DNA from: Folioceros fuciformis
Lineage: Eukaryota
Assembly: GCA_049999805.1 (NCBI GenBank)
Contig: JBNGIO010004535.1
Span: forward strand, 1-38,606
Reading direction: 5' to 3'
Length of the DNA stretch: 38,606 nucleotides
Positions within the stretch are counted from its first letter, which is position 1; every line of letters begins with the position of its first letter. Shown piece by piece: positions 2,384 through 31,072 of this stretch. The notes beneath the pieces are model-generated. The model worked only from the letters and a program-made list of their open reading frames with translations, searched no databases and had not been told where the DNA came from. The position numbers and the translations under genes were made by a program.

Positions 2384-5300
2384 ATGGTGTCCTTGAAGGA
2401 GAAGTGGGACTCGCCGGAATGGAGAAGCGGTAAGACTGTACAGAGTGAGAATGTGCAGGATAATAGTAAAGGGAAGGGGAGAAAGATGGGAGCAGACCAT
2501 CACCAGAGCCTTCCGATTGACAAACACCGGTCCAAGATTTTGGATCATATAATGAAGAATCGAGTGACGTTTATCCAGGTACACTTTGTGAGGCAGACTG
2601 GGGTGCTTTGATTTGCATCACATTGTTTCACTTCCTGTGTGACAATCGCATGAATTGCGACGTTCGAGTCAGCGACGTGCCTTCTCGTCATGTGGCTGCA
2701 GGGAGACCCTGGGTGCGGGAAGAGCACGGCGGTGCCACAGTTTATACTGGATGATAATCGTTTCAGAGCGGCGAAGGTTGTGGTTACCCAGCCACGGCGT
2801 ATTGCAGCCATATCGTTGGCAAAGCGGGTTGCCCAAATGAGAAATCAGCTTGTAGGAGATGAAGTTGGGTACTGTGTTTCCAACGATCATATAACTGGTG
2901 GCGAGCACACCAGGCTTTTGTACATGACTAGTGGGTATTTGCTGGAGGTACGTGTCCTGTTGGTGCACCACGCTTGGCTGTTGTGGACTCGGTCTAGAAC
3001 TTGCAGACGCCATTAACATTGTTCCCCCAAACAGACGAACGTTGGAACTTGAGGAATGTGTATGCCTGTAGAAGCAGCTAGAACTATGACCGACAAGCGT
3101 ACAGCCATGCATTTCAATCGTGCTTAGGCGTCACCACCCTTGGTTTAGATTGTTCTGCAGACTGGCGGCTGGAGGCTGAATGAATGAAAGCCAGCCTTGT
3201 TCGTCATGCGCAGTGGCTTGGTTGCCAGTGGGACAAGACGAGGCCTTTGCAGGAATGCATGTCTCATCTGATACTGGATGAGGTGCATGAGGGAAACGCT
3301 CAGCAGGAGTTGCTCATGCTCATGGTGAAAAAACTCCTACACTGCGGCCAAAAAGCCTGCTCGGCATCCACCGGCTTCCCCAAGATCATCATAATGTCAG
3401 CGACACTGCAAGTGAAGCCTTTCCGCGACTACTTCGCGCCCTTCACTCGGCAGTTCAGCATCAGCAAGAGAGGAGGCTCCCGTGGGCCAACCATCCAGGC
3501 TTCGGAATCCTTGGACGACACCTTGCATGTCGGAGCGTATAGGTTTTCTGTAGACATTGTTTTTCTGGAGGAGATTTTGAAAGCCATCCCGACCCTTGGC
3601 TCTGCAGGGAAGGAGATTGTACGAAGGCTCCTCAAATTCCCAGCCAACGGTGAGTCCTTTCCCAGTTTTGCCTACTCTCTTGTGGTGCACCTTGTGAGCC
3701 AGACAGCACAGGCCGGGGATGCAGTGTTAGTGTTTGTGCCTGGCATGGGTGACATTGTGCGGCTGCAAGAGGAATTCAGACGCAAGTCAAGTGGAGCAGG
3801 AGACAAACGTTTGGAACTGTACTTTTTACATTCCTTGCTCGAGAAAGAAGAGCAAGCGGCGGCGCTGCAGCCACCATCTCCAGGTACTACGATCAGTCTT
3901 AGAATAATACGTACGATGGCACTAGACACACTTCTTCTCAAACGAGGCAGATGTTCATAAGCGTCTGACCGAGGCTGTGGAACCGCTCCGGGACGTCTTG
4001 CAGGAGCCGCCAAAGTAGTGTTGTCCACAGACCTTGCTGAGAGCAGCATCACCATCCCAGGAGTCAGGTTCGTGATTGACATGGGAATGACGAAGAGCAT
4101 GACGTTCGACAAATCTGTCGGGGTTCATAGGCTGTCCTGCTCGTGGTGCACAAAAGCTTCTGCAACGCAAAGAGCTGGGAGGGTTGGTCGTCTCTACCCA
4201 GGCACAGTATTTCGCCTCTACACCCGAGAAATGTATGATCATTTTCAGGCAAGCTGCTTATCCTAGACCACTTGATTGCGAGTGCTGAAGGTGGTGAAGC
4301 AAGGGATCCTCACTCTTTCCATTTCCACCTCGCAGTACTGGATTGCATTGGTCCTTACATGCAGGTTGCACGCATGTTTCTGTTTTCCTCATCTGACACC
4401 AGTTTCCAGGACTATACTGAGTCAAAAATTCGAGAACAAGAGATTCAGTACGCCTTGATCAAGCTCTTGAGCAACTTCACAGCGTTTGGCCCACCTATCC
4501 AGCTTGTTCAAGAAACGATGGTCCCTCCTGAGCCAACGCTGGTAGTCGACGCTATGAGAGCCCTGAGAAGTTCAGGAGCATTGATGTATTCCGATCACAA
4601 CAACTTCCATGATGCTAAGCTTACGGCACTTGGACGCTTAGCCAAATGTCTTGCAGGCGATGTTAAGGTGGCCAAGCTTGTGCTGAATGGTTTGGTCCTG
4701 AACTGCTCCCCTGACTGTGTTGTAATGGCAGCAGCACCGGAAAGTGACAAGGAGGACATATTCCATCGCTATCAGATCCATCAGTGCCAAAGGTAACACT
4801 CACATTGAATCCGATCTCAAACCACCTCACAGTCCTGTGACAACCGTAGATAAGTCTCACATTGGGGGAGGGGCGCTGTTTTACTGTGCACAGTGATCCG
4901 CTGAAAATTCAGAATAATCTGTGTGAGTCCTTCAAGACGAGAAAAAGGTTTGACAGGGGCCACTACAGTGAGCTCCTGATTTACCGACAAGTATATATCG
5001 AAGGCCAGCGGAATCAATTCACCAGAAAATGGTTAGAGCAGAACCACCTTAGCTCCCCTCGATTCGAACTTTTCACTCGGAGGATTGCAAAGTTTGCCAG
5101 CCATGTCTCAGAATTCCTTCAGACCCACAATTTGTCAGAAGGAATGAGTTTAGAGCTACAAAAGCTCACACTGCTTGCGCGACATGGCAAGGGCTACACG
5201 TTGGATTCATTTATATTCCGAGAGGACCTGACCATGGTTAAGCTTGCCATCACAGCAGCTTTTACAGACTGTCTGCTTGTCGGGGAAATTGCTAACAGTA

Positions 5301-8300
5301 GGCAAGCAGTGAACGAGTCCATAGAACTGCAGAAAGCAGGACTTCTTCCCTCTGTCTCATTCAAATTGAATGGAATCGAATCTGCTCCGGTGAATGTTGA
5401 GGAGTTAGGCAAAGTGCTTCAGGTATGCTATGTCACATTCAAGGCACAGCGTGTTAGAACGGAGTCACATGCCATGAAAATGATGTATCACCAGGTTTGA
5501 CACGTTCCAAAATGACTTGTGTTGTTGGACGTGTTCAGGTGGTAGGACCCTTTGCTAGGATTGTACCAAGTCCAACTCAAAATGGAGCAGCTCTAATCCA
5601 ATGTTACAACGCAGGAAGTCAAACAAACTGTTATGATTCTGTTGTCCAAGACCTCCCCCAAAGTTGTCTGTTACTGTTCCGTTTGCCGAGAGCAAGCGCC
5701 TCCAGACGAGCAACAGTAGTTCATCTTGCTGGGCAAAACGGATGCAGCGAAAGACACATTGGCCGACCCTCGAAAAGCAGGCAAATTGGGTGGTCTACAA
5801 TACTGAATGGACGTACTGTCAAGGTAAAGTGTGAACAGAGCAGCATATTGGAGCCAGCGTTCGAGATGAGGACAAGGGGAGAGGTAAACTTTCATCTCGC
5901 TGTGGCTCGCCAGGTCCTCGGGACAACTCGAAAGGACAAAGTAACCGCGCAGTGCGTAACCCTCTTGCCATCTCAAAACCTGTTTTCAGTCCTAGCTATT
6001 TTGCTATGTTGGCCTCCAGGGGAGCATGGTTTAGAGCTTCGGATGGATACCCGTAGCCAGAGGGTCTACTGTATCCGTATAGGACCAAGACTGAACCTTT
6101 CCCTGGCACCTAGGTACCTCATCTTGAAGCAACTTGACCTTATTGAAGTAGCTCGCATCAAAATGCATAGAGTGCTAGCCGGTGAAATGGTTCAGGGAAA
6201 TCTTGAGATGGACATAAGGATGATCCTCATGGCTGATACAAATCAGAAGCATCAAGCCGTTATGTCTCCTCAACTGGGGCCTTGGGTTCGGTATCCCTTT
6301 ATGATAAGTTCCGAGGAATGCAAGGTGAACATTTCAAACAACGGAGCAAAACACTTTAACGGTGTACACAAAGGAAAAGCGCGTAATGCTGCCCGGCAAT
6401 CAGTAAAATCAGTGGCATCCCTGGATGTTCGTTCTGAGGAGAGTGCGCCAACCAAATCCACGAACACTGTTCAACAGAAAAAAGTATATATTCCCAAGTG
6501 CGCTGATGAAGGGGCTAACCGATTGCAGCGAGGAGTTAACGACGTACACATGTCTTCAGATGAAGCAGTCCAGAGTTCTGGACAGTCTGTGACTGACGCT
6601 CAAAGGCCTCTGCTTATCTTTGCTACAGATGAATCATACAACCATGCAACTAGGGAGAAAGTCGCAGTCCTTGACTCATTACTCACGGAAGACATGGCTA
6701 CCATGCCCCATAAGCTTTTCAGTACAGCACCTGACCGACTGCAGGAAGAATTTAAGGAAGCACTCGCACTCGCTGATATGTCTTTAGATGAAATAGGCGA
6801 AAGTTCTGAACATGCGGGGAGTGAAGCACGCGAACTACGTCTGCCCGTGGAAGACAAGGCCATCGTACGCATTGAGTCAGGAGACAAGGCTACCATATTG
6901 AATGACCTACCCGAGGTTGCAAGTACAGTTACACCCGATATTCAGACCCTGCTCACTGCTTTCCAGCTGGTTGATCCAAGTCTCAGCCTGCAGATGGTGC
7001 ATGACTGGACCTCCGGGGAGAGATCTCATAATCAAAAGTTTTTTTCTCTATTAAGGGAGTTAGTCCTGATGTACCATTCTACAGAGGGGGAATCATTGGA
7101 CTGTGATGTTCCGACTGTTGTAGAGATCGTGCATAAGGAGAAACGAAAGCTTGTCAACAACAAACAGCAGGTACAAAATTGTTGATCATGATGTCTGTGA
7201 ATGTCCAGCCACGGTACGCAAACTTTGCAGCTGACTAACGCAGCCTGATTGTGCAGATGCAAGTCGAAACCTGGTACCACTCAGTATGCAATCCGGACAA
7301 ATCAAAGATGATGCCATTGACCGCTTGGGGCACTGCTCCACGTGAAAAAGTGCGAGTTGACAAGCAAGATGCTCAGTCATTCATCAGGCAACCATCTGCC
7401 ACTACAATCAGCAAAGAGCTTTCACTAACACTACCTCAGAGAAGCTTTCTTCTGCAGAAGTTGAAAAGTCAGCCGGTTCCTGAGGTGGACGTTTTTATTC
7501 CTGATGTAGCATCTAAAAGCAGCTTGGTGATGGTGTTTGGGGAACCCTTGCAAGTAGAGACGGCTTTGGGGTGGATCAGGTCTACAGTTCTTGAGCACAC
7601 GCCAGGAAAATGGCGCATTAACCAGACATATATGGACTCCCAAGACAGTCACCAGAGCATTCGTTTCGTGGCGATAAGTCAAACTCGAAACAGGCTGTTA
7701 TCAGAGTTTGTTGTACAGCTGGCTCCAGGACTTCGTTCCCCTTTGGATGTCAAAGCTCCATCCCTGTACCTTCCTGAAATATCGAGGGACTTTGGTAATG
7801 TTCTGCAGAGGGTACGCTCGGGGACAAAAGTCGAGATGCAGGGAAGACTTGGAAGGGTAGTTTTCTGCCAGAAGAAAAGCCAGGAGATCTTTTTGCCATA
7901 TGACGTCAGTCGGACACCAAACGTCCTCATCCGTCTTTTGACAGAAAAAAAAGTGCACAAGCAGCGGTTTGATGACGCAATCCAACCTGAGGAGTTTGGC
8001 TATTTACGTTCAGCCCTCGCCATCTGTCGCCCAAAAAAAATCTTCAGACACCAGTCCATCATTCTGCAGGTGTCCAGTTTGCAGAGGCAATCTGCAAACG
8101 AAGGCGTGAGAAAGCTGACTATAGTTGAATCTGACAGTCGACCAGGAAAACATATATTGCAGTTGGTGCAACACAGAGAAAGACTAGCAGCAGCAGACAT
8201 CGTTCGACTACATGTAGGAGCAGTACATGCAGATATACGACTTTGTATGACGGTATGTGTTTACAGACGAATTGCTCCCGAGTTCCAGAAACGAGAGACT

Positions 8301-11300
8301 ACTTGTCCCTGCTTGATCGAAACTCTGTTCCTTGATGTTGCAGACCACAGTGCAGAAAGGAGTAACGAAGGAAGACCAAGAATTTGTGGATGGTATCGAA
8401 AGAAGAGGTGCTATATTGTGGTTTCCACCTCATTATGTAGTGCACACCAAAAGGCTGAAGGAAATGGAGGTATTTCTGTTTCATGAGTTGAAGGTTTCTC
8501 TGGCTGTAGTCACCCAGGCACGTGGTGAAGGAGACTCAGTGATAAAACATGAGGTAGAGTTTGAGGTCGTGGATCCCAATGGAGATGGCTCCACTTCGTT
8601 TTTATCACCTGAAAGTGTACGAGAAAGAATGGAATTTCTTCTGAGAGAGATTCAAAGCATGTGTACCGAGTTAAGCTTGAAATTTGATGAAACAATTACC
8701 AAAGACTTAGCTGGGAAACTGCTGTTGCACTGGAAGATGCAGCATGGAAAGAGCCCACAGCTCCGCAAGTTGCTTGAACTTGGGTTGTCTGCAAACCCAG
8801 AGGAGAAGGATGGTGACTCTGTTCATCAATCACCTGCACACCCTGTCAGTCAGGGTTATGGGCGCAACACTAACAACAGTGAGCTAGTCTGTGACCTAGT
8901 GGAACACCTGCATCACTTTGATGGTTGCATCACGGCCAAAGATGATGTCGCTGCAACTGAACTGCTTATTGCAGTACTTCAAACACTTCATTCTATGAAA
9001 TTCTTGCTTGCCACAGGTGTCCAGGAGAGGGCGTGGATGTTGATAACAAGTAGTGAACTGAAACCAAAAGTTGCCCTCTGGTTTGCCTCTCTTGTTTCAA
9101 GAGATTGCTATTCCAAACATCATTGGGAGGATGTTCTGTGTCCTTACCTGTGGCAAATGGAGCTTGAACAGCAGCATGAGGAAGCTGATGAGCTGATCTT
9201 ACTTCTTGGCCTTCAGAAAAAGCCGATGAAAGTAGTTCTGAATGACCTTGCACGTGGTCCCAGCTTGAATAACATATTCTGTTCTCTCCGAAGACTGATC
9301 CACACCAACAATGCTCCGCAGTTCATGGCAGTTTTCTCACGCGCTCTCGAACAACAGAGTGCAATTCCTCCACGGCATTTAGAGGAAAATATGAAAAAGG
9401 TTCTTTGTCATCATGAATCAAGAGGTGCCAAATTCGTGCTACTATGCTCGGAGTGGTTTCTGCAAAGTTCAGAAAGCGAGGGAGACACAGACCACAAGTC
9501 AAGTCTTTTGTGGTTGATTGGAGTGATCAAAACACTAAACGTCCCAATCAGTGAGGAGTGCCGTTTGCTTGCATTGTCTCAGCTGATGGAATTCGCACCA
9601 GTGGAGATGGAAGCTCAAGACATTGAGGAGAAGATATTCAGTACATATCAAGTGGACGAAGCTCTATACAGAAACGAGCATTATCAAAGAATTTTGAAGA
9701 GCCTTTCACTCTCTCGTACACATATAAATGTATGTCGAGTCGAGAAACTCAATAAGTAGCACATGAGTTCTTCAACATGTCAGGGACCAAATCCGTCACT
9801 AAGACTTGCCTTCCTGTGCACACTGCAGGAGTTGGTACGCAGGGGGCTTGCAGAGAGCCAATGCCATATGTTTAAGACTTTACATCCTGGACATCGAGTC
9901 AAGGCAAGCTGTCTTATTCCTGGTGTGAATAGAGGTGGAGATAAATTGATAGGAAGCCCTGGAATCTTAATCCCTGCTCGAGACCCTACAGGTCAAATAA
10001 CTGGTGCCCAGATCAAGGTTGACAAAGTCAATAGTGGGAAGTATATCTGGTGGAGCAGTAAGAACGAAGGAGGAAGGGGACCCAGAGTGCGTGAAAGTTT
10101 GCCGTTGTTCTGCTGCATTCCAGAAGGACATGATTGTGCAGTTATTGGACTTTGTGAAGGTGCAGCACCTTTGTCTATATTGGAATTCAGATGTCCCTAC
10201 CCAACTTTGGTTTACCGTAGACGATCTTTGAGAGGCTTCGTACAGTTGAACAGCGACCACACCTCAGTAAAATCAGTCTTTGGGAGTGTACCTGAATTCT
10301 TTTCGCAGCTCCCTATCAAGCTTAGTAACAAACATGCTAAATGCAATGCAGGAGGCCTTAAAGCACATGTTGCTGCAGCCTTGAGTGGACTGCCAATGAT
10401 TGGAGCTTCTGGAGCGGCATTCCCACAATCAAGGAGCTTACTTGAGACATACTTGGCTATGCTCAAGCCCGCACAGATACTTTTCTTTCCAGATGCAGGT
10501 TCAACAAGTAATGACCAGGCAAGTTCCAATGCCCTTCATCTCTGTCGTACATTGATTTTCAGTGTGAGCATGGAAGACGAATGTTTCTTTTGATTGCAGG
10601 TAACACGGAGCTACTTCCACACATTTCGACTACTTCGTGAATGGAATTATAATTTTGTTATTGCATGGTGGGGCCAAGTGAACAAGGAAGATCACCTTGA
10701 TATCGATGACTTTCTCTGCACAAGTGAGTCTGCAGAGGAACTTTCGTTGTTATCAGTGCGCCAATTTTGGCAGCTCATCAATCCAGACGTGAAAACCAAG
10801 TTAGACGAAGAATTTTCTGAGTTGAGCAAGCCTTGGGAGGTTCGCGTTCAGCCCCAAGCTATAGACCTAGAGGAAACATTCACAGACACCGATGACATTA
10901 AAATCACAAGAATTCCGGCCTCGATAGAAAGCGTGCATACTCAGAAGTTCTTGATATCAATCCCCAAAGCCAGGATGACGAGGATGCCAAACCCACCAAA
11001 TGGATATGTCACACCTTCTTCTGTGAAAACTTTTTCCATAGAGGCCTCTATGGTGTCCGTGAACAATTTGCAAGAAATAGATCTACTAGTAGAGTGGTTG
11101 ATGCAAGGGGAGAAGGATGACAAGGCTATCATAGGGCTGGACTGTGAGCATGACCCTGATGGTACACTGAGACTCATACAGTTATCTGTTCACAGTCGAT
11201 GTCTGCTTATTCGCGTACCTTTCTTGACATCCAGGCACCTGTTCCAAGCTCCTATCAGGTACACAATGGGGACTTGTTCTGCCAGGTTCCATGTTGGGTT

Positions 11301-14242
11301 AGGTGGCTGTAGATAACGTACTTACTTCTGCAGGCTCTCAAGACTCCTTGCCTCTGTAACATACATAAAAACTGGAGCGGAAGTCCACAAGGATGCCCTT
11401 GCTATCTTCCACACCCTGGGACTTGTGGTCAATGGATGCAAGAACGTATCTCATGTGTATCGTGATAACAATCGTACGAATGGCATGTTACAGATATTCA
11501 GGTAAACAGCTAGCTTACTAAGTACTTTCTCACTTTCCCCTGAATACCGCACTGTCACGTTGGGATGTACAAAGGGTTCTCCCTGTCATATTTCTGTATA
11601 TGGATCCGTCCTGAACTTCACGTCATGAGAAGGGACACTGAATAGACCTAACCCAACTTGCGGCAGGGACTTGTACGGCTGGGACTGGAAAAAGGAAAAG
11701 TCTGTAAGCTGCAGTCATTGGGGTGGTGACTACCTATCACTTGAACAGGTTAGTCACAAGCACCTGCTACCTGGTGTGGGCTCAAATGGGTGGTCTATGT
11801 TAACAAAAGCAACCTGCATAGGACTCCTGCAGGCGGTACTAGATGAACTAATGCAATGCGCCTTGTCCAGATAAAGTACGCAGTCATTGATGCCTGGGCA
11901 TCTCGCATGCTGTCACTTCAAGGAAGGGCTGCAGAGGAGGGTGCCATTCCTTTGGTATCCTTGCAAGATGTTCCCGTGACGGTGCTCGACATTTTTGCTA
12001 GATCAATATCACACTCGGATACTCTGAAGAAGGAAGAAAAAGTAATCGAGGTCAGAAGGCAACATATTCTACTGGAGAACATAACAGCACCAAGAAGTTT
12101 TTATCTGCTAGGCTTTCAGCTCCCTTTTGCTTTGATCGATCAGAATTTGCTTGCTTAAGATTCCTGCCAACTGTCTGCACATCAGAGTCCTCATACTCGT
12201 GACTGAGGTGCTTGTGTGTAATCTAAATCAGGGGGAGGGAAATATCATGGCGCTTAACTGTGGGGCACTCCGACTACAACAAATTAAGTTCCGGTCTAGA
12301 GTTCTTGGGATAAAGTCTTCAGTTGAGATTAAGTTCAAAGATGGCCAGGAACCGAAAAAATATGCTGCCACAGCACGGACAGGGAAGACAGTCACGTTGC
12401 GCCTAATATCAACGTCAGCACCTACTTTTGAAGCTGACACAAAAGAATCAGGTACACATGTGTCATAGAAACCAGTGTCTTTAACTGCCTCGAAGTTACA
12501 AAAATGAGAATGCTAACAGTGGTTTACACATTCACCGAGCAGGACAGTGCCTAGATGTTTCTTCAATAAGCAGCATTGTCGTCGACAACAGAAAACACGC
12601 TAACAAGGCGAAAAAGAAATTGGAAGAAGCTCTTTATGGCATACTTTGTGCACCAGCGAAGTGCCCAGCCCTCTTACTTCGTGCACTTCACTGTAGCAAC
12701 ACCCAGAGAGACAACGTCATCCTCAAAGAATGGACTTCGACTCATTCAAGGGTGATGGCACTACAGCACATCTCTGGTGCTCTGAACAACTCTCAACGCA
12801 AGGCTTGGGAACAGATCTTGACATCTGATGTCTCAGCTACTATCGGTCCACCGGGGACCGGGAAAACAAGACTCATTGCAGCAGTCACCCAAGCATGGCA
12901 TGATTTAGCGGATGAGGGGCATGTCTTCCTCTGCACCGCTGTTCAGAATGTGGCAACCCGCCATGTTGCAGAAACACTTGTTCGGCAACAGGTATATTTC
13001 AACTCTCTCCTCTGTGAGTCCAGTCAATTTCCAAGTGAGACTTTCTTGTTGAAAAAGTCACGAAGGTTTCTTTCAAACGGCGCTGCAAGGTTGACCTTCC
13101 ACTGCTGTGCTATCTGTGCTTATCTGCTGTCTTCACATTTGCCGAAGGTACCCGGAGTCATGCTGCTGATCAGCCAAGACTACTACATGGAATGGCATGA
13201 ACATCTTTACAAGGACATCAAAGAATTTGTTATCATGTCAGCAGCTCGAAGCGATCTACTTTCGTCTCTCCATATTTGGGCTGTCACTAACAAGCGGAAA
13301 ACCCCGCGGATCCTTATTTGTACTCTCAGCTCGGTGGGTTCCCAAGCCTTCAACACAAGTCTCATGGGCGGAAAAGTGACCATGATGCTTGTCGACGAGT
13401 GTTCGCAAGCTGCAGAAGGCAGCATTTTGGCACCTCTGGTATGTCTACCCAACTTGCAACAAATTGGAGTTATGGGGGACCCCTACCAACTGCCACCATT
13501 CAGTGGGAGGCAAACCCAGGCAAACAGCGTGTATGACTTGATGGCAACGGGCTGCATCCCAACTTTACTGGAGGAGCAATATCGAATGCCTCCAGCTATC
13601 TGCGACTTCATATCATGCGAATTCTACAAGAAGAAACTGAGGACAGCTCCTATTCGCGAGAGACAGAAAGGAATCAGAACTCCACTTTTATGGGTCAATG
13701 TGAAGGGGCACAGTACTGTTCTACCTGGGAAAACCTCCTTGACCAACAAGGCAGAAGCAAATGCCATCATTACATTCTGCAAAAGCTACTCAACGCTCTC
13801 AGCTGGAAACATGGACACACAGGAGCCCAGAACACTTCCGACCAACAACGAGAGCCAAGAAGCAGGGAACATGAGTCTGGTAGTGCTCACTCTCTACGAA
13901 GAGCAGCGCCACCTCATCTCCAGCCTCATGCGTGAATCAAACCTAGAGTTCCAGGTCCACAACGTAGACTCATTCCAAGGCCAAGAGGCGGAAACTGTCC
14001 TAATCTCCCTGGTGGTTGCTGACAAGATATCACACTTCGCAGCGGATCCACATCGAGCCTGCGTGATACTGTCACGAGCAAGTAAGCTGATGTGCATATT
14101 CGGGAACCTGAGCAAAGTGGTAGACAACCCAAGAGCAGAAGTCTGGAGGAGGCTCGCATTACATTGTCAGCATCATGACTTCATTCTTCAAGAGAATGAC
14201 GTACAGTCGGTTGTGGAGGAAACGACACGACGACCAGCTTGA
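2384..14242 (+). CDS. Giant multidomain protein (~3210 aa): DExH/RHA helicase + HA2, KH-like, CYTH-like, helical region, TOPRIM-like domain, DEDDy 3'-5' exonuclease, Upf1/DNA2-NAM7-like SF1 helicase
   Basis: Predicted exons: 2384-2578, 2702-2947, 3214-3883, 4004-4248, 4410-4792, 4894-5422, 5539-7170, 7257-8252, 8344-9729, 9829-10159, 10352-10518, 10600-11258, 11334-11501, 11667-11748, 11871-12050, 12232-12451, 12543-12991, 13148-14242. All junctions are phase-compatible (total 9633 nt). DExH motifs: GDPGCGKST, TQPRRIAA, DEVHE, MSAT, STDLAESSITIP, QRAGRVGR. TOPRIM-like motifs: CEGGLKA, PDAG, AWWGQ..DIDD. Exonuclease motifs: GLDCE, YAVIDA. SF1 motifs: GPPGTGKT, DECSQ, GDPYQLPP, QYRM, VDSFQGQE, SRA. 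The 5' start is uncertain (possible extra exons in 1900-2430). Confidence 0.8.
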
Positions 14243-14314
14243 AAAGCAAGACTTGCTGTCTCATGTGAAGCACACAAAACTCTGTGGGCTACGGGCCACC
14301 GGGCCATCAGTACT

Positions 14315-14702: not shown

Positions 14703-17700
14703 ATGTGGGTGGTCCGTTGTATGTGCCGTATCGTGAAACCAGGTCCTCCCAGAGTTCCTTACCCGCAGCAAGATTTCAGGCCGCTGGTCACCATTTCTGC
14801 ATTCCGCGTGCCAGTGTTCCGGGACGATCACCGACCATTAAGGGTAGGCCATTCGGCCTTGTTCAGAACTTCCAACTTTCTTTCTGGGGTTGAAACTCAT
14901 CGGAGCGAGGTGTTGGGTGAATGCTTCAAAGATACCATGGTGTCTATGAAGGTGCTCATCGCGTGTTACCTTGTCTTTTGCCCCGTTTCAGGGTGATGGG
15001 TCCAGGTGTTGCAGGCTGCAAGAGAGTGGGGGGATAGTGTTGTCAGATCTGACTTTTGTTCCACTGATGGTGCCGGACGCTGCCAGGGGTAGCTTCAAAC
15101 ACACGCGGATTGACACAAGGCTACGGTCGGCACAGGCTGTCGCGAACTGCACTGGACCTAGCCGAATAGGGGAGCAGGGCAAGCTAGTGTCTAGTCCCGG
15201 TAACTGCTTGACTGCCGCTCAATGCAATGTTCTGGTAGGCGAGCCTGCAGTTGAGGAATTTCTGATTTGTAGGTGTCCTGCAGAAGAGCCAGGGGCACAG
15301 CCAGCATTGTGGGAGAAATTTCTGGACGGATTTGCACGGTTGTGGGACAGTAGGTCCAAAAAGGTAGTTGGCTTAGCAATTGTCTTGTTTGTATCCGGAT
15401 GAGCTGTAGTTATGGTGTACTGGAGAAGTCGTAACTAGGCTGTTGATGTGGCAACAATGCAGCTGTGCAAGTTGACGGGGGACCAACTACAGGAGCCTTC
15501 GTGGATTGACTCACAACATGCGTGGCAGGAAGGGAGGCTACCAACATCACCAGCTGTCAGTCGATTCAGACCTTCCTACCAGTCTGAAGAAGTCCCGGAC
15601 GCTGATCGTAGCAACTTGTTGAGGTGCAGATTCCAGCTCTTTTGATTGAATTTGTTGCTCCGGTCCTCCACAGGTGTGGTGCCCACAATAGTTTCCTGAT
15701 TATGGTGGAATTTGCAGGGCTGTCGCGGACGAGACACCTTCGGGGGTAGGAGCCTGGTTCGATGTATATGGCGAAGGGGGGCTCACCGAGGCTGTTGGTG
15801 CATTGGACTCCGTGGTGCAGCAGGGGTCCTATGTTCCCACTGCTCTCGTTTATGGTGTACTCAAGAGAGGTGTGGCGGAGAAGGATCTGGTTGTGGGCAA
15901 GCTTGTCCACTCTCTTACTCGTGCCACGGGGTACGAGTCTAGCACATTTTTAGCTAACCATATCATCCGCATGTATACTTCCCATGGGAGATTGCTGGAA
16001 GCAACCAAGGTCTTCAGCAACTTGGATAGTCCGGATGTATTTGCATGGTGCTTCATCATATTGGCACACGTTGAACAAGGTCAGCCTACTAGGGCTATAG
16101 AGCTGTACAAGCATATGCGCCAATTATCTGTGAAACCAGACAGTCATACGTATGTGGCAGTTCTTAAAGCCTGTGCCAGTGCTTTGGATCTGGCATCTGG
16201 CAAGCAGGTCCATTCTGATATTCTGAGTGGTGAATTGCAGCCCAGTGTCTTCGTTGGAAACTGCCTCGTGGACATGTATGTGAAATGTGGCAGCCTAGAA
16301 GATGCCCGAAGAGTGTTTGACAATCTGCTATCCAAGAACGTGGTTACTTGGACTGCTATCATTGGAGGATATGCCCAGCAAGGGCTTGGTGAAGAAGCCC
16401 TTTCCTTGTATGCAAGTATGCATGAGGAAGGCATCAATACTGCAGACCGTGCTACTTATGTGTGTCTCTTGAAAGCCTGTGCCAGCATTGGAGGTTTACA
16501 TCAAGGGAAGTCGTTTCATGAAATAATCAAGGAGAAAGGACTTGAATCGGATGTAGTTGTTGGCAGCAGCTTGGTAGACATGTATGCCAAGTGTGGAAGC
16601 TTAGAAGATGCCTGCAGCGTTTTTGAAAAACTCCCAACCAAAAATATGGTGACATGGACAGCTATCATATATGGGTACGTGCAGCATGGTCGTGGTCAGG
16701 AAGCCCTTGATCTGTACGCAAGTATACAACGGGAGGGCATGCTTTTAGCAGACCGTGTTACATTTGCAGGCTTAGTGAAGGCATGTGCAAGCATTGGTGC
16801 TTTAAGTACAGGCAAGGAGCTTCATCTCCAGATTCAGAAGAGCAGGCTAGATCATGACGGTCTTGTTGGCAATAGCCTGGTGGATATGTATGTGAAATGT
16901 GGGAGCTTGGAAGATGCAGGGAGGGTGTTCAACAATCTGCAGTCGAAGGATGTCGCCACATGGACTGCCATGATTGCAGGATATGGCCAGCATGGGCTTT
17001 GCCACGAAGCCCTTTCCCTTTATGCTAGGATGCAAAAGGATGGTATTGTTCCAGCCAATCACGTGACATATGTGTGCCTTCTCAATGCATGTGCAAGGGT
17101 TAGAGCTCTTTCTCAGGGAAAGCAGCTGCATTCTCAGATTCAGGATAGAGGGCTTGAAGTTGATGTGGTGATTGGCAGCAGCCTCGTGGACATGTATGCT
17201 AAATGTGGGAGCTTATTGGACGCCCGGAGGGTCTTTGACAGACTGCCAACCAGAAATGTTGTGACATGGAATTCCATGCTTGCAGGATATGCTCAGCAGG
17301 GGTTTGGCGAAGAAGCCCTCGCTCTTTACTCGATAATGCAGGAGGAGGGCACTACACCAGCTGGCCATGGAACCTATGTGTGCGTCTTGAATGCATGTGC
17401 GAGTATTGGAGCACTGCGTCAGGGAAAGCAACTGCACTCAGAGATTCAAGAGAATGGACTTGAAGTTGATTTGGTTATTGGCAACTGCCTGGTGGACATG
17501 TATGCAAAATGTGGGAGCTTATTTGATGCCCGCAAGGTATTTGATGGGCTTCCGAAGAAAGATGTGGTGACCTGGACCGCCTTGCTGAATGGGTATGCCC
17601 AAAATAATGACAGCCAGAAGGCAATGCAGTGTTTCCAAGAGATGCAGCAGCATGGGGTGGAACCAAATGACGCTACTTTTTTGTGTCTCCTGACATCATT

Positions 17701-18478
17701 CAGAAATCAGGCAATGGTTTCTGAAGGCCGGCAGTACTTCAAGGTGATGATGGAGCAGTATGCAATTGCACCAACAGTTTTCCACTATGCAGTCATGGTT
17801 GACCTGCTTGGAAGGTCAGGATTCCTTAATGAGGCGGAAGATATGCTCAAGAGGATGCCAGTCAAAGAGGACACCGTGGGGTGGATGACGTTGCTGTGTG
17901 CCTGTAGGAAAGCAGGTGACACACAGCGGGGCGAGCGGTGTTTCAACCGACTTACTAAATTAGAACCTCAAAATGCAGCAACATATGCGCTCATGTCGAA
18001 CATTTACGAAAATGCGAGCAGGTGGAGTGATGTACAAAGAATAGAAAGCCGGAGGATATCTGCAGGTGCTTGCAAGAAGCCTGCGCGGGCTTGGATTGAG
18101 GTAGGCATCAAAGTCCATACGTTCACTGTTGGGGAGACCAGGGACGACATATCCTCTAGGCTAAAAAGTGCCAACCTTGGCTTGGAGGAGGACAAAGAAC
18201 ATGAGCTACCTGATCAGTTGGTGCTGCAGCCATTGTCTCAGAGAGAGAAAGGTGATGTTCTTTGTGGACATGCTGAGAAGCTTGCATTAGCATTTGGTCT
18301 GCTCAACACTTCTGATGGCACACCTTTGCTAGTCACCAAAAATCTTAGGATGTGCCAGGACTGCCACAATAGTACCAAAGTATTGTCGAGGATTGAAAAG
18401 CGAGAGATCATCGTGAGGGATGCACACTGTGTCCATCGCTTTGTGGACGGGCTCTGTTCATGCGGAGATTCACATTGA
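14703..18478 (+). CDS. PLS-class pentatricopeptide repeat protein with E1-E2-DYW:KP deaminase-like domain (candidate U-to-C organellar RNA editing factor)
   Basis: About 19-20 P/L/S motifs, ending P2-L2-S2-E1-E2, then KPARAWIEV, HAEKLA, CQDCH and CSCGDSH*. The track ORF at 15803 starts at TTG. In-frame GT-AG exons 14703-14909, 14992-15363, 15439-15623 and 15718-18478 supply an ATG and an Arg-rich transit-peptide-like N-terminus (these 5' exons are less certain). Confidence 0.92.
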
Positions 18479-22674: not shown

Positions 22675-24392
22675 ATGGGCACTTCGGGATCAAAGTTGGA
22701 AAAGGTTCTGGGAGATCAGTTCCCAGAAGGCGAGCGGTACTTCGGATTGGAGAATTTCGGCAACACGTGCTATTGTAACAGCGTCCTGCAGGTGACAGCT
22801 CGGTGACATTGGAATTGGAGTTGGTGTGGCTGGCGATGTGGAGTTACCTCTGAATTTTTGAGAGGTTTGTACGCGCTTGCAGGCTCTGTATTTCTGCGTG
22901 CCGTTCCGAGACCAGGTGTTGGAGTGCCGTAGCCTCCCCAAACCTGCTGGGGAGGCAGAGGAAAATCTTTTGACCTGCTTGTCGGAATTGTTCACACAGG
23001 TATGCCGTTGCTGCTCAACGACTTATTATTACCTCTGTGCCTGTGGGTTCTAATATGACATTCTTAGCTTTTTCTTTCTTCCGCCCTTGCAGATAACCTC
23101 CCAAAAGAAGAAGACTGGAGTGATTCAACCAAAGCGTTTTGTGCAGAGAGTCAAGAAGCAAAATGAGCTTTTCAGGAGCTACATGCACCAAGTATGTGAT
23201 AGCATGTTGTGTCGTGGCATGTGCCACAGGAACAGGTGGTCCATCTTTTACTCAGTTCTGTCTCCCTTGTATCATATGGACAGGATGCCCACGAGTTTCT
23301 GAATTTTCTTCTGAACGAGCTTGTTGATATTCTCGAAAAAGAGGCCGCCGAAACTGCAAAGTCGGCCTCTGGTAGCCTGGTCCAGTCAGAGAAGGTCTCG
23401 AACGGGAACGTGAACGGACGGACAAATGGTAACCATGAGAAATCTGCAGCAACCTGGGTGCATAAGATATTTCAGGTGAAGGAGGAAGCTGCCGGACCTC
23501 TGCTTTCTTTTGCCTGCCACTGGATTTGCACGTGTGTCTGCCTCTATTCGTTTTGTCTTTGGCACTGAGAGTCCCTTCTGTGGTAAACGACGTCTTACAG
23601 AGTGCAGCTTTAACTTCTTCTTTAAATCTGCAGGGCACTCTTACGAACGAGACTAGATGCCTACGGTGTGAGACCATCACAGCCAGGGATGAGACATTTC
23701 TTGATTTGAGTTTGGACATCGAGCAAAACAGCTCCATCACAAGCTGCCTGCGGAATTTCAGCTCCACCGAGACACTGAATGCTGAAGACAAATTCTTTTG
23801 TGACAAATGCTGCAGGTTGGCAAAGCCGAACCTCGGACAGTTCAACAGAAGCATCCTGTCCTTGTTTCTTTCTCCGTTTGAAATGTTGCACGATGACGGT
23901 AGCTGTCCTAACCCTTGTTGTCATGGCAGCTTGCAGGAGGCGGAGAAAAGAATGAAGATCAAGACACCCCCTCGGATTCTTGCGCTGCATCTTAAACGTT
24001 TCAAGTACATGGAGGCGCTTCAGAGGTACAAAAAGCTTTCATATCGTGTTGTGTTTCCCTTGGAGTTGAAGTTGGTCAACACGACAGATGATGCTCCCAA
24101 TTCCGAGGCAGAGTACTCCTTGTTTGCAGTTGTGGTGCATGTGGGCACTGGTCCCAACCACGGCCATTATGTCAGCCTTGTCAAGAGTCACAATCACTGG
24201 CTGTTTTTTGATGATGAAAATGTGGAGATCATCGACGAGTCGATAGTACAGACCTTTTTTGGGTCCACACAGGAGTACGCAAACAACACAGATCATGGTT
24301 ATATCCTATTTTACGAGAGTCCGGAGCAGAGACCTAAGGTTGGACAGAATCCCTTGCCTGATTTTAGAAAGGCCCAGGCCAAGCCTCTGTGA
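22675..24392 (+). CDS. UBP3: Ubiquitin-specific protease UBP3/UBP4 (USP12/46-like)
   Basis: Exons 22675-22791, 22883-22999, 23093-23191, 23284-23475, 23634-23815, 23930-24392. [11 protein letters not shown]-terminus, Cys box [29 protein letters not shown], His box [17 protein letters not shown]. Confidence 0.95.
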
Positions 24393-24888: not shown

Positions 24889-26171
24889 TCACCCCAATTC
24901 AATATCTTGGTAGGTAGCATCAGCTCTCTTATCAGATTTGTTCAGCATATTCACTACTTGCTTCATTGTCGGTCTTCTATCCCTCGTGTCTGCTAAACAA
25001 GCCAAGGCCACCTGCACGCATTCACAGACAGTGAGACTTGTGTTCATTGGCGTACGATGAAAGACGTGCAAAGAGTGGGTCAGTCTAGGATCAAGGCAGA
25101 CAAAACTGGAAACCTTGGCCACTTCTTCGATGCTCTGGAAGTCCTCGAGAGTGAGGCTGTCATACATAGTGCGATCAATGATCTCCCGAACTCGATTCTG
25201 CTTGATGAAAGGGACACAACGAGCCCTGATCTCGGGCTCCAATGAAGCCTGGTCCCAAGGACCTGTGCAGTTATTAGCTCCAGCAGCAGCGCCCCGAAGC
25301 TGAAAACATCTGATTTCTCTGTGAGCTGCCCGCTTCCATGGTACTCGGGATCAAGGTAGCCGAGAGTGCCCATCACTTTAGTGAAAACGTGGGACTTGTC
25401 GTGGGCCAATCTCGAAATGCCAAAATCTGCAACCTTGGCATCGAAGCTGCTATCCAGCAAAATGTTTGCCGACTTCACATCCCGGTGGAAAATGGGGGGC
25501 CTGGCCAACACGTGCAGATACATGAGGGCCTCGGCAGTGTGGATAGCAATATTCAGCCTTCTGCCCCAGTCTAGCTCAGTGATTTTCCCCTGACGAGCGT
25601 CTTGCAGGTGGTCCCATACGGTGCCGTTGGGGATGAACTCGTACACTAACAGGGGCACCTCATTCTCAATACAGCAGCCCAGAAGCCGCACCAGATTGCG
25701 GTGATTCAACTGGGACAGAATGTGAACCTCGTTCAGGAAGTCTTCCAAGTTCTTGGTTCCAGCATCGTTGGATTTCTTGATGGCCACCACCCTGCCGTCG
25801 TCGAGCCATCCCTTGTACACCGTGCCGAATCCTCCCTTTCCAAGCGCAGTATCAGGAGAGAAATCTTCCGTTGCCTTCTGCAACTCTCGGTACTGGAACA
25901 AAGTACAACGAGAGCTCCACGTCGCTTTCACTCTCTCAAGATACGAGGGATGCCTGGAATCAAGAGTTTTCGGCAATTCAGACACGGCGACATCTGTAGG
26001 TGTGGACATCTGAAAGGTAACATCTGGCACCCGGAAGTTTTCGAGAGTCTCCTTCCGTTTGAAAACGTAGCAACATAGCGCGAACTTGACGATGATGAGG
26101 CCCATAGCGCCGAGGGCGATCGAGGACGCAACGATGGCGAATACCACGGCGGAGGAGAGCACAAGGAGCAT
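24889..26171 (-). pseudogene. Receptor-like kinase with N-terminal membrane anchor and WAK/LRK10L-like kinase domain, frameshifted
   Basis: Hydrophobic N-terminal segment, GKGGFG, VAIKK, HRDVKSAN, DFG, GTLGYLDPEY. The frame shifts near 25262 (ELITAQ / PWDQ...CVPFIK in another frame). Last intron at 25012-25113. Confidence 0.8.
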
Positions 26172-27374
26172 GCACGATCACTCAACATGCTACCTGAGGG
26201 TTCGCAGCTAGTACCGGGCTAGGATTGAGCCTCTTGCTGCTTACCTATGAAAATTGTGTCACTCGGTCCTCCGTCCGCTGCATCATCATCAGACTGTCAT
26301 GAGAAAGCTTCGCCCCTAAGCTTCAACCACCTTACTGCACATCAAAACCTTCCAGAATCTCGAGCAACCAGGCCCTGCCAGGATAGAATCAAGACCTGCT
26401 AGGAAAGCGTCTTACAAGGTGAGTTACCTTGTGCAAGGCACTTGGTTCGAAACCAGAAGAGGACTAGAATCCATCGCATCCAGGCAGTGAGCGGCGAAGG
26501 CCCCGTTGCTGCCCTGCCCATGGCTTATGCGCTTCACAGTGGCTGCACCGTCGATCCCTGTCACCTTTCTAAGGCCAAGGAAGTGTAACACAGCACCTAG
26601 TTGGGATACTTGCCCGACTTCGTCAGAGACGTTAAAGATCTGTGGATCTTCGATGGACGTCTGCCTCCACATCTGTCATTTTGTATGCATTTCTGCCTAC
26701 GTCTGCTTCGAGAGAAGTTCCGGTGCTCCAGGGCTCTCCTGCTACATGTTAGACTTATCTCGTAGGGAGACAAGTCAATTGGGGAAGGTTGCACCCGGGG
26801 CAGGTGCAAAGCGGTCAGTCAAAGGAAACGCGGGGTCGCAGTCTCCCAGCATTTCCCATTGCCATGCTGTGACCGTGTAGCCACTGGCATCCCTGGGCTG
26901 GATATAACTTTGTCCTCAAGCTGTGCACCAAAGTTCGGCCTTCCGCGCGCTGCTCCAGACCTGCGGCAATGGGGCTAGCCGTAAAAATCAGGTGGCCAGG
27001 TCTGGGCCCCACCTATCCACTCGTGCAGCCGTGCCATGCTTCATGTATGACATCCATGGCTTGTGCATAGGGATACGGTCAGCATCTACGTATGGTTTTG
27101 CAGGGCACCGGCAACCGGTGAAAAACGGGCTGGCCATGCAGATCACGAGCGAACTACTGTCCTTGTTCTACAGCGCACACTATTACACTATACGCAATAT
27201 ACGTATACGAATACGCGTATATCTTCAATTAAATATTGACTTGCGCCTGCTTGGAACCAAGTCCCGCTTCTTCAGATTCTGCGGGCAGAACCAAGTCTCG
27301 CTTCTCGTCTTCCACGGGCAGAGATAGGCAAGTGTGTGTCTGCGTAGAAGGTTTGCCATTCCATTTTGGAGCCC

Positions 27375-29450: not shown

Positions 29451-31072
29451 CTAAGCCCTAGGCCCAGACAGTTCTATCGCCTGCAGAGGCTCTGAGCCGG
29501 AAACAGAGCTCGACAATTTCGGATGTTTCCGGAAGCTGCCACCGGTCGGCAAGACTTCACTCTCCAAACCATCACCCTGATAGAAAGCATCGGATTCAGC
29601 GCTAAAATCAGATGCGCCCACTTTGTTCAGTTCGCCCAATACTTGTGTCATTGTTGGTCTTCTATCTCTCGTGACTGCTAGACAAGCCACAGCCACCTGC
29701 AGGCATTTGTTTGCAGAAGGTGAGTGTCCCTTGGTGTACTATCAAGCATGTACTGAAACTGCTCATTCCCAAAAAGAGGGGCCAACAAATCCACAAACCT
29801 TTGCGACTCCTTTGATGCTCTCGAAGTCCTTTGGACTTAGGCTGTCAAGCAGAGTGCGATCAATGATCTCCTGAACTCGGTTCTCCCTGATCAAAGGGAC
29901 ACAGGCCTCACTGAGGTGGGTGACCTGCGATGAAGAGCTGTCCACGGGTTTCTGTGCAGTTATCAACTCCAGCAGCACCACCCCGAAGCTGAAGACATCT
30001 GTCTTGTCTGTGAGCTGCATGTTTCGGAAGTAGTCAGGATCAAGGTACCCGAGAGTGCCCTTCACAGCAGTGGAAACGTGGGTCTTATCTTCCTCCACCA
30101 ATCGGGAAAGGCCAAAATCTGCAACCTTGGCATTGAAGCTGGCATCCAGCAGAATGTTGGCCGACTTCACATCCCGGTGGAAAATGGGAGGGCTTGCCTT
30201 GATGTGCAGGTATTCCAGCGCCTCGGCAGTCTGGATAGCAATCTTAAGCCTTATGCTCCACTCCAGCTCAGTAGGTCGGCCCTGACGAGCTTGCTCCAAG
30301 TGCTCTCGAAGGGTGCCGTTGGAGATGAACTCGTACACCAGCAAGGGGACCTGCGTTTCCACACAGCATCCCAGAAGCCGGACCAGATTTCTGTGGTTTA
30401 CCTGGGACAGAGTGGCCACTTCATTCACAAACTGTTCCAAGTCCTGAGCTCCCCCATGCTTGGATTTCTTGATGGCTACCACAACTCCATTAAGAGATCC
30501 CTTGTACACCGTGCCAAATCCTCCGCTCCCTATCTGCTCGTAGGGAGAGAAATTCTGTGTTGCGTTTTGCAGCTCCTGGTAGTCGAAGAAAGTACATCGA
30601 GCACCCCCACTTGCTTTCAACTTCTTGAGAACTCCTGAGTAACCAGGCATGTTCCGCCCCTCGGAGTCAGCATAGGGGTGCGAGTGTTCGGACCGCCCCC
30701 GCCTTCGGTATCTGTCAATACCAAAGACTGCTAGGACGGCAGCGCTGATCACAACCACAAAGGGAATGATAATAGCTGCACGCAGAGGAGCGAGCAACGA
30801 TGCACATCAGGTCACATTTCTGCCTTGCCAATCGCCGACCAAAATTTGATGCTCAGGAGTCTGCAGCTCCAGCTCACATGTAGTGTGTAGTGTTGGCTAC
30901 CTGCAAGTGGAAGAGTCACTTTCTTTGACGATGCGGGTGCGCCCCCTACACCTCCTGGACTTGGCGCTGGGGTTGATGGCGGCTGTGCCGAACTTTGGCC
31001 TGGGCAAGTGAAAGGAAAGCCCAGCAGGACTGAAATCCATAGCAGCCAGGAAGCCAGCATTCCATAGCCCAT
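29451..31072 (-). CDS. Receptor-like kinase with signal peptide, short Pro/Ser/Ala-rich ectodomain, TM helix and WAK/LRK10L-like kinase domain
   Basis: Exons 31072-30901, 30775-29799, 29696-29451 (phase-compatible GT-AG). MGYGMLASWLLWISVLLG signal, QPPSTPAPSPGG, TM followed by RYRRR, GSGGFG, HRDVKSAN, DFGLSR, GTLGYLDP, RPTM. Confidence 0.88.

Follow-up and report, generated by a model that had tools for sequence, protein, structure and literature searches.

The plus strand of a 38,606-nucleotide contig from Folioceros fuciformis carries, between 2.3 and 14.3 kb, a run of long open frames with short, stop-rich gaps between them. This arrangement raises a question: do the frames belong to one giant gene and, if so, what kind of protein does it encode? 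The contig (JBNGIO010004535.1 of assembly GCA_049999805.1; positions 1 to 38,606, forward strand) is called the window here, and all coordinates are those of the window. A preliminary description had joined the frames into a single gene with 17 introns and one uninterrupted 9633-nt frame. We find that 2384–14242 (+) is indeed one transcribed, spliced nuclear gene of 18 exons, whose protein has about 3205 residues. From its N to its C terminus, the product is predicted to contain a DEAH/RHA helicase, about 1,300 family-specific residues, a DUF3854/Toprim domain, a DEDDy exonuclease resembling those of WRN and EXD2, and a Upf1-like helicase of superfamily 1 (SF1).

The gene was rebuilt independently of the earlier model. 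Borders supported by RNA were fixed, and the other gaps were closed by a homology-scored choice of splice sites: for each remaining gap, every frame-preserving GT/GC..AG pair was scored by local alignment to five homologues. The resulting gene (2384–14242, plus strand) has 18 exons and 17 introns, and its 9618 nt comprise 3205 codons and a stop codon at 14240–14242, with no internal stop. Its ATG is the first one past an in-frame stop at 2303–2305, and the donor of the first exon, at 2578, is joined to 2702 in an RNA contig. The rebuilt gene departs from the earlier frame by only 15 nt, at the acceptor of intron 2. There, position 3229 scored 622 against the five homologues and position 3214 scored 609; the latter adds 15 nt and yields exactly 9633 nt, and thus the two models are essentially the same. 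The junctions between modules (7170/7257, 8252/8344, 9729/9829 and 12451/12543) all have GT..AG borders and introns of 86–99 nt. Since the modules are split by introns, a Pfam scan of the raw open reading frames (ORFs) of the window was silent for most of them; only the last ORF matched (AAA_12, AAA_11). The assembly has two gaps in the window, runs of 10 N at 1596–1605 and 33270–33279, the first of them some 780 nt ahead of the start codon.

RNA evidence came from the contigs of one public sequencing run (X1), in which 68% of the sampled words of window positions 4300–14250 were present. The run behaves as cDNA, because its contigs agree with the window to at least 99% and their joints fall at canonical splice borders. 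Fifteen of 16 joints were listed: nine GT..AG and one GC..AG inside the gene on the plus strand, one GT..AG downstream of it, and four CT..AC, borders that identify these four as minus-strand introns. Among the joints listed, 10 of the 17 introns were spliced, namely introns 1, 3, 7, 8, 11 and 13–17 (2578/2702, 3883/4004, 7170/7257, 8252/8344, 10518/10600, 11501/11667, 11748/11871, 12050/12232, 12451/12543 and 12991/13148). Contig cover was absent at 3053–3503 and 4857–6660. Of the four inter-module junctions at which the preliminary description expected splicing, three were thus seen spliced in RNA, and 9729/9829 was seen only unspliced. The contig that crosses the latter is unspliced over 9493–10515, through introns 9 and 10, and has intron 11 (10519–10599) removed; it forms one continuous path from exon 9 to exon 12. 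Intron 11 is of the GC-AG type (GCAAGT...GCAG) once a 3-base ambiguity in its RNA joint is resolved, and for a second GC-AG intron, intron 4 (4249–4409; GCAAGC...CCAG), the prediction comes solely from homology. The lengths of introns 9 and 10, in nucleotides, are each divisible by 3. Intron 10 has no in-frame stop, and its retention would place 64 extra residues between the Toprim glutamate and the helix that follows.

The other foundation of the single-gene model is a set of colinear homologues. In a HMMER search of exon 8 against 1.84 billion representative proteins, only five matches were returned, four of them from one family of giant proteins: two proteins of 2695 and 2837 residues and two short fragments from Logan assemblies. 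The fifth (P0005; E 4e-10, spread over six weak stretches) proved to be a bacterial Ig-repeat protein of the Big_6 type and was set aside as unrelated. Exon 8 itself had no Pfam Big_6 match. By cluster look-up, one long match belongs to the liverwort Calypogeia fissa, where it is listed as an unnamed protein, and the other to the fern Ceratopteris richardii, as a hypothetical protein with an additional isoform of 2994 residues. A second search added Calypogeia paralogues of 3343 (P0007) and 1697 (P0008) residues and proteins of the ferns Adiantum nelumboides (2879 residues) and A. capillus-veneris (3025 residues). In all, six predicted proteins of 2695–3343 residues, from four species, are colinear by tblastn with about 2.5–14.2 kb of the window. 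One of them, P0007, bears DEAD, Helicase_C, DNA_pol_A_exo1 and AAA_11/12 domains on a single chain. The spliced RNA contigs and these homologues together sustain the earlier proposal of a single gene.

Three observations concern the Calypogeia proteins. The paralogues P0002, P0007 and P0008 lie on one 15.85-Mb contig and are 80–87% identical where they overlap. P0008 has only the Toprim, exonuclease and SF1 modules, preceded by about 370 residues of Lys-rich tandem repeats. In P0007, the P-loop region near the N terminus appears to be repeated twice, which may be an annotation artefact.

Within the databases searched, the giant-protein family was found only in one liverwort, three ferns and unnamed contigs. 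The gene belongs to a small undescribed family. The preliminary description had considered the protein lineage-specific; this does not strictly hold, as the family is already public under the labels "hypothetical" and "unnamed" in the liverwort and the three ferns. Its view that the architecture had not been described has fared better: full-text searches, whose scope ended short of supplements and subscription journals, returned no paper on the domain combination or on the locus tags.

What enzymes, then, does this chain contain? The first module had been read as an RHA-type DExH helicase, and its motifs, profile matches and Helicase_C domain bear this out. Motifs I (GDPGCGKS), II (DEVH), III (SAT) and VI (QRAGRVGR) of superfamily 2 (SF2) are intact in the window and align with those of the homologues. 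With a profile of five homologues, the best PDB matches were Spindle-E (9e-83) and DHX36 (6e-68), followed by DHX29 and DHX9/MLE; exon 3 of the window, searched by itself against the PDB, gave DHX36 (3.6e-8), then DHX29 and Spindle-E. Exon 4 matched Pfam Helicase_C with 35.7 bits (cut-off 23.5). The Pfam HA2 model had no match on exon 5. Residues 441–638 of the model aligned in hhalign to the winged-helix and HA2 part of a 30-sequence HrpA alignment (98.5%, E 4e-15), which indicates that the winged helix and the ratchet are present.

The likeness to the group of DHX36, Spindle-E (TDRD9), DHX29 and DHX9 therefore covers RecA1, RecA2, the winged helix, the ratchet and motifs I, II, III and VI. 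Beyond these, the plant protein differs from the group: by Pfam scans and hhalign it lacks a detected Tudor domain, DHX36-specific motif, double-stranded-RNA-binding domain and oligonucleotide-binding (OB) fold, and it continues for about another 2,500 residues, in which three additional enzymatic modules lie. Tudor domains were absent from Pfam scans of three homologues (P0002, P0003 and P0006) and from the precomputed domains of P0007. For the OB fold, Pfam OB_NTP_bind had no match on exons 6 and 7 at E ≤ 1, and hhalign against the HrpA OB domain gave 0.2%; a divergent OB fold is possible. Because no Tudor domain was found and the OB fold went undetected, we do not regard the protein as a Spindle-E orthologue.

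The Toprim domain near the middle of the chain was likewise recognized earlier; it is real and can be specified further. By homology, it is a DUF3854 domain related to the catalytic core of DnaG primase, that is, to the N-subdomain plus Toprim. Four of the nine matches to a profile of the region (A2) were bacterial PF12965 proteins (3.6e-9 to 1.2e-5), and one bacterial DUF3854 relative (P0019) also carries PF01807, the DnaG-type zinc finger. The same profile found stand-alone eukaryote-like proteins, one from Acrasis kona (3.5e-23) and one unnamed (6e-39). In a comparison of protein-language-model features, 14 of 30 matches were DUF3854, at 0.96, and others were Toprim_2 or DNAG_N. Alignment A3, compared by hhalign with 30 DnaG cores, scored 95.4% (E 2e-8, 217 columns); a plants-only profile scored 12.8%, and controls 0.2%. 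This alignment pairs the N-subdomain motifs (RD..G and KY), the Toprim glutamate, the first aspartate and a distal acidic pair.

The domain has its nearest relatives at the N termini of CyRepA1-family proteins, replication proteins from cyanobacterial plasmids. A tblastn search of plasmids found it in 86 records at 34–38% identity over 82–93% of the domain, with E down to 1e-28; the commonest genera listed were all cyanobacteria, and two of the 15 rows listed were annotated as CyRepA1 family. Compared with a CyRepA1 protein, the window model scored 113 bits at 33% identity, confined to the DUF3854 domain of about 250 residues. In a 21-row tree, the plant domains form one clade (95/98), which groups with the unnamed stand-alone protein (P0013) and with a clade holding the cyanobacterial plasmid domains (90/99); other bacterial DUF3854 proteins, like DnaG, fall outside this group. 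Since the rows of this tree were selected (six of the 86 plasmid records, four of the 30 DnaG cores) and its root is arbitrary, we name no donor.

The catalytic residues of this domain are conserved in part. In all ten rows of A3, the Toprim glutamate (C-E-G-G) is invariant and aligns to the glutamate of DnaG EGYMD. The first aspartate of the DxD motif is also invariant; the second is a glycine (D-A-G) in the six plant, Logan, ENA and Acrasis rows, while the four bacterial rows have DxD. The aspartate that follows the Toprim glutamate is replaced as well, relative to DnaG. Both stand-alone DUF3854 proteins, P0013 (unnamed, 446 residues) and P0015 (Acrasis kona, 448 residues), have the plant-type D-A-G and WWGQ variants, and in P0013 the domain is preceded by a Cys-rich stretch that resembles a zinc finger.

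Several searches gave no match for this region: Pfam, NCBIfam and PHROGs on whole homologues; the Pfam DUF3854 hidden Markov model on P0002 and P0006 at E ≤ 1; and 50,697 phage records. Against PDB sequences, the best E was 0.027, a repeat artefact. The CHC2 zinc-binding domain (zf-CHC2) was absent from the Pfam scans of the homologues. The domain thus resembles the DnaG core in its N-subdomain motifs, Toprim glutamate, first aspartate and distal acidic pair and differs from DnaG in lacking the CHC2 and DnaB-binding domains and in the two replaced aspartates. Further primase cores of the DnaG type are those of T7 gp4 and Twinkle. Like the Slr7037-type CyRepA1 proteins, which have an N-terminal DUF3854 domain and a C-terminal helicase, the plant protein has its DUF3854 domain (33–38% identical over about 250 residues) on the same chain as a helicase. 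The likeness ends there: the plant helicase is Upf1-like SF1, an exonuclease lies between the two modules, and DxD is D-A-G. Passages of PMC10079941 relate DUF3854 to primase Toprim domains and give its function as unknown; according to these and to passages of PMC9978351, its activity lacks a biochemical demonstration. As reported in the latter passages, CyRepA1 is genetically essential for replication of the plasmid pSYSA. To judge from a table in PMC6220310, sequences of the DUF3854 type are found in organelle genomes of ferns and liverworts too: cyanobacterial DUF3854 proteins are among the best BLAST matches of ORF531 in the plastome of the fern Mankyua, and a mitochondrial ORF of the liverwort Treubia is listed in the same table.

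Behind the Toprim domain lies an exonuclease that had been described as intact, and the five catalytic DEDDy residues are indeed present. They reside in GLDCE (ExoI D and E), HKDAL (ExoII D) and KYAVIDAW (ExoIII Y and D), and Calypogeia has them too. The Calypogeia homologue P0002 matched Pfam DNA_pol_A_exo1 with 38.9 bits (cut-off 23.6); the pieces in the window, split over four exons, had no Pfam match. Among solved structures, the nearest are those of EXD2 (2.3e-5) and the WRN exonuclease (7.9e-5). With these the module shares the exonuclease fold family and all DEDDy residues and, as in WRN, fusion to a helicase. The plant helicases, however, are DEAH and Upf1-like and not RecQ, and the plant exonuclease is internal, in contrast to the N-terminal exonuclease of WRN.

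For the last module, the Pfam core, motifs and PDB relatives all agree with the Upf1-like helicase proposed at the outset. The last ORF of the window matched Pfam AAA_12 (1e-29) and AAA_11 (8.5e-21); motif I reads GPPGTGKT and motif II DECSQ. The best PDB relatives are Nam7/Upf1 (6e-15) and Sen1. In the defence library, the strongest match of the module was MkoA of Mokosh (1.4e-51), which reflects mainly shared Upf1-like ancestry. Features of the stretch ahead of the helicase, taken through homologue P0008, pointed weakly, with no score reaching 0.9, to the 1B barrels found in Upf1-like helicases. Pfam scans of the window ORFs and of the homologues found no Upf1-type Cys/His (CH) zinc domain. 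The module shares the AAA_11/AAA_12 core and motifs I and II with Upf1/Nam7, Sen1, MOV10, ZNFX1, HELZ2, DNA2 and MkoA; unlike members of this group, the plant protein has no CH zinc-knuckle, R3H, NFX1-finger, RNB or PD-(D/E)XK domain that we could find. Conversely, we know of none of these proteins that has DEAH, Toprim or DEDDy partner modules, and our literature searches agree.

The stretch between the DEAH module and the Toprim domain resisted assignment. Exon 7 is 26–33% identical to the homologues, its acidic, Ser-rich linker (residues 1006–1230) being only 20–44% alignable, and it had no Pfam or PDB match. Exon 9 had no match in the PDB and none among proteins of 810–2310 residues. Ankyrin-like PDB matches for exons 7 and 9 were rejected as chance-level (E 0.23). 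KH- and CYTH-like regions had been proposed in the preliminary description, and neither found support in Pfam, a PDB profile search, hhalign or a reading of motifs. None of six sequences matched Pfam CYTH at E ≤ 1, hhalign against 30 proteobacterial CYTH domains gave 0.07% and 0.1% (controls 0.1–1.0%), and the candidate for the ExExK strand reads E-x-Q-x-R in the window. For KH, one of the six sequences gave a sub-threshold match (KH_PARP14_8, 19.1 bits against a cut-off of 27; KH_1, E 0.072), hhalign gave 0.6–3.0% over 22–24 columns (controls 0.1% and 1.0%), and no GXXG loop could be read in the window segment. The best E of the region in the PDB profile search was 1.6. As the KH and CYTH reference alignments were proteobacterial only, a very divergent fold could escape these comparisons.

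Which of these parts has the family kept? Identities between the window model and the five homologues were calculated per module. The Toprim domain is the best conserved, at 57–60% in all five homologues, followed by the SF1 helicase at 44–50%. The exonuclease is 53% identical to that of the liverwort and 27–33% to those of the ferns, and the DEAH module 38–39% and 26–31%, respectively. Exons 8 and 9 stand at 23–30% over most of their length, with 26–44% in the first 90 residues of exon 9. In all three ferns (P0006, P0009 and P0010), the P-loop, DExH, SAT and motif VI of the DEAH module are degenerate (D-R-A-D or D-D-V-D in place of DEVH; no SAT), ExoI D/E and ExoIII Y/D are replaced, and no change is seen in the Toprim and SF1 motifs. 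All four catalytic centres are retained in the window and in Calypogeia. From this pattern, the evolutionarily conserved unit is the Toprim domain together with the SF1 helicase.

How might such a protein work? We picture a self-contained machine that would unwind and process nucleic acid. DEAH motors move 3′→5′ and Upf1-like SF1B motors 5′→3′; on the strength of these family polarities, the two end motors may each follow the opposite strand of one duplex or hybrid, as in RecBCD. The comparison with RecBCD and AddAB is by analogy only: in both cases two motors of opposite-polarity families and a nuclease activity would be combined in one machine, but there is no sequence relationship, the plant machine is one polypeptide of SF2 and SF1B motors, and its polarity is inferred. 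Alternatively, the motors might supply the central modules with single strands. The pairing of a Toprim domain with a helicase is shared with plasmid and phage primase-helicases and with CyRepA. In the plant protein, nicking of the substrate or synthesis of a short RNA would fall to the Toprim/primase-like domain, and trimming of 3′ ends to the DEDDy exonuclease; the fern versions of the DEAH and exonuclease modules would serve only as non-catalytic scaffolds.

As to biological role, we lean weakly towards a protein that would survey or degrade invading nucleic acid, RNA:DNA hybrids or unwanted RNA, in preference to one for DNA replication or repair. The tandem Calypogeia paralogues, the patchy distribution, the decay of modules in ferns and the relatives that act in silencing and defence all point faintly towards defence or conflict biology. 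A bolder version, which we think quite unlikely, would make of an active, plasmid-Rep-derived primase-like core and a Upf1-like helicase an unrecognized kind of eukaryotic surveillance enzyme. Here, the opposed motors would unwind the invader, the Toprim domain would nick it or make short RNAs without an RNA-dependent RNA polymerase, and the exonuclease would trim the products. The system would have persisted in spore-bearing land plants, seed plants having yielded no example of it; control over the retention of intron 9, with an antisense RNA over exons 8–9, could switch between the full-length protein and two halves.

Taken as a whole, the account of one giant five-part gene that encodes a nucleic-acid machine with a leaning towards surveillance seems to us reasonably probable, and its genic part carries most of that confidence. 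A number of points weigh against it. The run X1 has no library type on record, its "RNA" label is a guess, and from its contigs neither the ends nor the strand of transcripts can be read, nor whether molecules are full-length. Five of the 17 introns (2, 4, 5, 6 and 12) rest on homology and lack RNA support, and the homologues are themselves gene predictions. The only contig to cross 9730–9828 and 10160–10351 retains both introns, and retention of intron 9 brings in a TAG at 9757–9759, followed by an in-frame ATG at 9763. About 1,300 residues (exon 7 past its first 250 residues, and exons 8 and 9) match nothing. Catalysis by the Toprim domain is not assured, given D-A-G in all the plant sequences and in two stand-alone eukaryote-like ones, and no PADLOC defence model matched this domain, nor was there a match of the Gabija type. 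The degenerate DEAH and exonuclease motifs of the ferns mean that a four-enzyme mechanism is not the universal function of the family. Finally, the motor polarity is taken from family precedent, and no result here separates RNA from DNA as the substrate.

Among the competing explanations, the one nearest to ours in probability, though still rather unlikely in our estimation, is that the protein acts to replicate or repair DNA: a primase-helicase descended from plasmids, composed of a DnaG-like primase and an SF1B helicase and equipped with a proofreading-type exonuclease and a G-quadruplex or R-loop resolvase like DHX36 or DHX9, would serve replication restart or the maintenance of nuclear or organelle genomes. 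This would suit the strong conservation of the primase-like domain and the SF1 helicase, the presence of DHX36 among the best solved DEAH relatives, and the kinship of the exonuclease with EXD2 and WRN, both of which act on DNA. It would also suit the kinship of the Toprim domain with CyRepA1, essential to its plasmid as cited above. That kinship, however, is limited to about 250 residues, Pfam scans found no DnaG-type zinc-binding domain, the second aspartate of DxD is lost, and the N terminus does not look, by eye, like an organelle transit peptide. Moreover, Upf1-like and RHA-type helicases are mostly RNA enzymes.

The gene model has its own competitors. If intron 9 were retained as a rule, an N-terminal protein of about 2,100 residues would end at TAG 9757, a Toprim-exonuclease-helicase protein would start from ATG 9763 or from an internal promoter, and the 3205-residue chain would be minor or absent. 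The unspliced state of the sole contig across introns 9 and 10, the in-frame ATG 3 nt past the stop, and P0008 of Calypogeia, in which only the three C-terminal modules stand behind an unrelated Lys-rich repeat, all fit such a division. We nevertheless hold it to be very improbable: the borders of intron 9 are consensus (GTATGT...CTGCAG) and its removal scores best (1260, against 1201 for the next candidate), its 33 codons match no homologue, five full-length homologues run continuously across the junction, and the same contig is a single RNA path from exon 9 to exon 12, with joints listed for 15 of 16. There is scarcely any likelihood, in our view, that the locus is a mobile-element or viral gene, or a recent capture of a plasmid-like or viral replication module, with no host function. 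The grouping of the Toprim domain with cyanobacterial plasmid Rep domains (90/99), the DUF3854-related ORFs in the Mankyua plastome and, by the table in PMC6220310, the Treubia mitochondrion, the three Calypogeia paralogues on one contig, and a copia-type reverse transcriptase fragment at 37173–38465 would agree with that origin. Set against these are 17 spliceosomal introns in a gene colinear with its homologues from a liverwort and three ferns, ordinary host genes around it (PPR-DYW, kinases, UCH), and the lack of any match in the 50,697 phage records.

The family of each enzyme is known, as are multi-domain fusions of helicases and nucleases; it is the combination of modules that we found described nowhere, and its unusual part is a primase-type module of cyanobacterial-plasmid affinity. 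To our knowledge, Twinkle is the only DnaG-type primase core described in eukaryotes. The plant gene would add a second, with its closest relatives in cyanobacterial plasmid replication proteins. If a role in defence or silencing is true, plants would possess their own equivalent of HELZ2, ZNFX1, Mokosh MkoA and similar effectors that unite helicase and nuclease on a single chain, with an unexpected primase-like part; if genome maintenance is true, the protein would represent a new primase-helicase, separate from the canonical replisome. The ferns, which keep only the Toprim and SF1 centres, offer a natural dissection that would show which activities are indispensable and would supply ready-made biochemical controls. 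Because Ceratopteris is transformable, the question of role can be put to the test.

Coordinates of the exons of the giant gene and of other features in the window. Residue numbers (aa) refer to the 3205-residue model; "RNA" and "homology" give the basis of splice borders, and module assignments are predictions.
Feature	Position	Strand	Predicted content and basis
Exon 1	2384..2578	+	aa 1-65; start ATG, lead-in to helicase P-loop
Exon 2	2702..2947	+	aa 66-147; DEAH motif I GDPGCGKS; acceptor RNA, donor homology score
Exon 3	3229..3883	+	aa 148-366; motifs II DEVH and III SAT, start of RecA2; donor 3883 RNA
Exon 4	4004..4248	+	aa 366-447; motifs V and VI QRAGRVGR; acceptor RNA, GC donor predicted from homology
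Exon 5	4410..4792	+	aa 448-575; winged helix and ratchet (HA2); borders by homology
Exon 6	4894..5422	+	aa 575-751; end of ratchet, then family-specific; homologues colinear by tblastn
Exon 7	5539..7170	+	aa 752-1295; conserved block to about aa 1005, linker aa 1006-1230, conserved helical end; donor RNA
Exon 8	7257..8252	+	aa 1296-1627; family-specific domain (the region earlier called KH/CYTH-like); both borders RNA
Exon 9	8344..9729	+	aa 1628-2089; family-specific, 462-codon open frame; donor 9729 homology only
Exon 10	9829..10159	+	aa 2090-2200; N-subdomain of DUF3854/DnaG-like primase core, to Toprim glutamate (CEG)
Exon 11	10352..10518	+	aa 2200-2255; Toprim centre GLKAH, GASG, FFPDAGS; donor GC-AG, RNA
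Exon 12	10600..11258	+	aa 2256-2475; end of Toprim WWGQVNK, DIDD; linker; ExoI GLDCE; acceptor RNA
Exon 13	11334..11501	+	aa 2475-2531; ExoII HKDAL; donor 11501 RNA
Exon 14	11667..11748	+	aa 2531-2558; exonuclease; both borders RNA
Exon 15	11871..12050	+	aa 2559-2618; ExoIII KYAVIDAW; both borders RNA
Exon 16	12232..12451	+	aa 2619-2692; pre-helicase region; both borders RNA
Exon 17	12543..12991	+	aa 2692-2841; SF1 motif I GPPGTGKT; both borders RNA; Pfam AAA_11 and AAA_30 on enclosing ORF
Exon 18	13148..14242	+	aa 2842-3205 and stop; SF1 motif II DECSQ and RecA2; acceptor RNA; Pfam AAA_12 1e-29
Ubiquitin C-terminal hydrolase (UCH) fragment	23466-24389	+	
Protein kinase gene	25083-26177	-	
Protein kinase gene	29766-30806	-	
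Ty1/copia-type reverse transcriptase fragment (RVT_2)	37173-38465	-	

The RNA contigs also contain a spliced antisense transcript on the minus strand (7987–9492), which overlaps coding exons 8 and 9. Its four introns (8092–8226, 8609–8699, 8834–8907 and 9058–9147) are canonical GT-AG on the minus strand. Because the longest ORF in its joined form has 112 codons, it is probably a non-coding natural antisense RNA; no Rfam family was found within the window.

Downstream, the window holds an intronless gene of 928 codons for a pentatricopeptide repeat (PPR) protein with E and DYW deaminase domains, at 15692–18478 (+). An RNA contig extends from the last exon of the giant gene beyond its stop codon to 14952, where it is joined across a GT..AG intron (14951/15087). 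This joint probably belongs to the 5′ leader of the PPR-DYW gene. Since the contig runs through the stop codon and is spliced towards the PPR gene, the 3′ end of the giant gene and the PPR leader abut or overlap.

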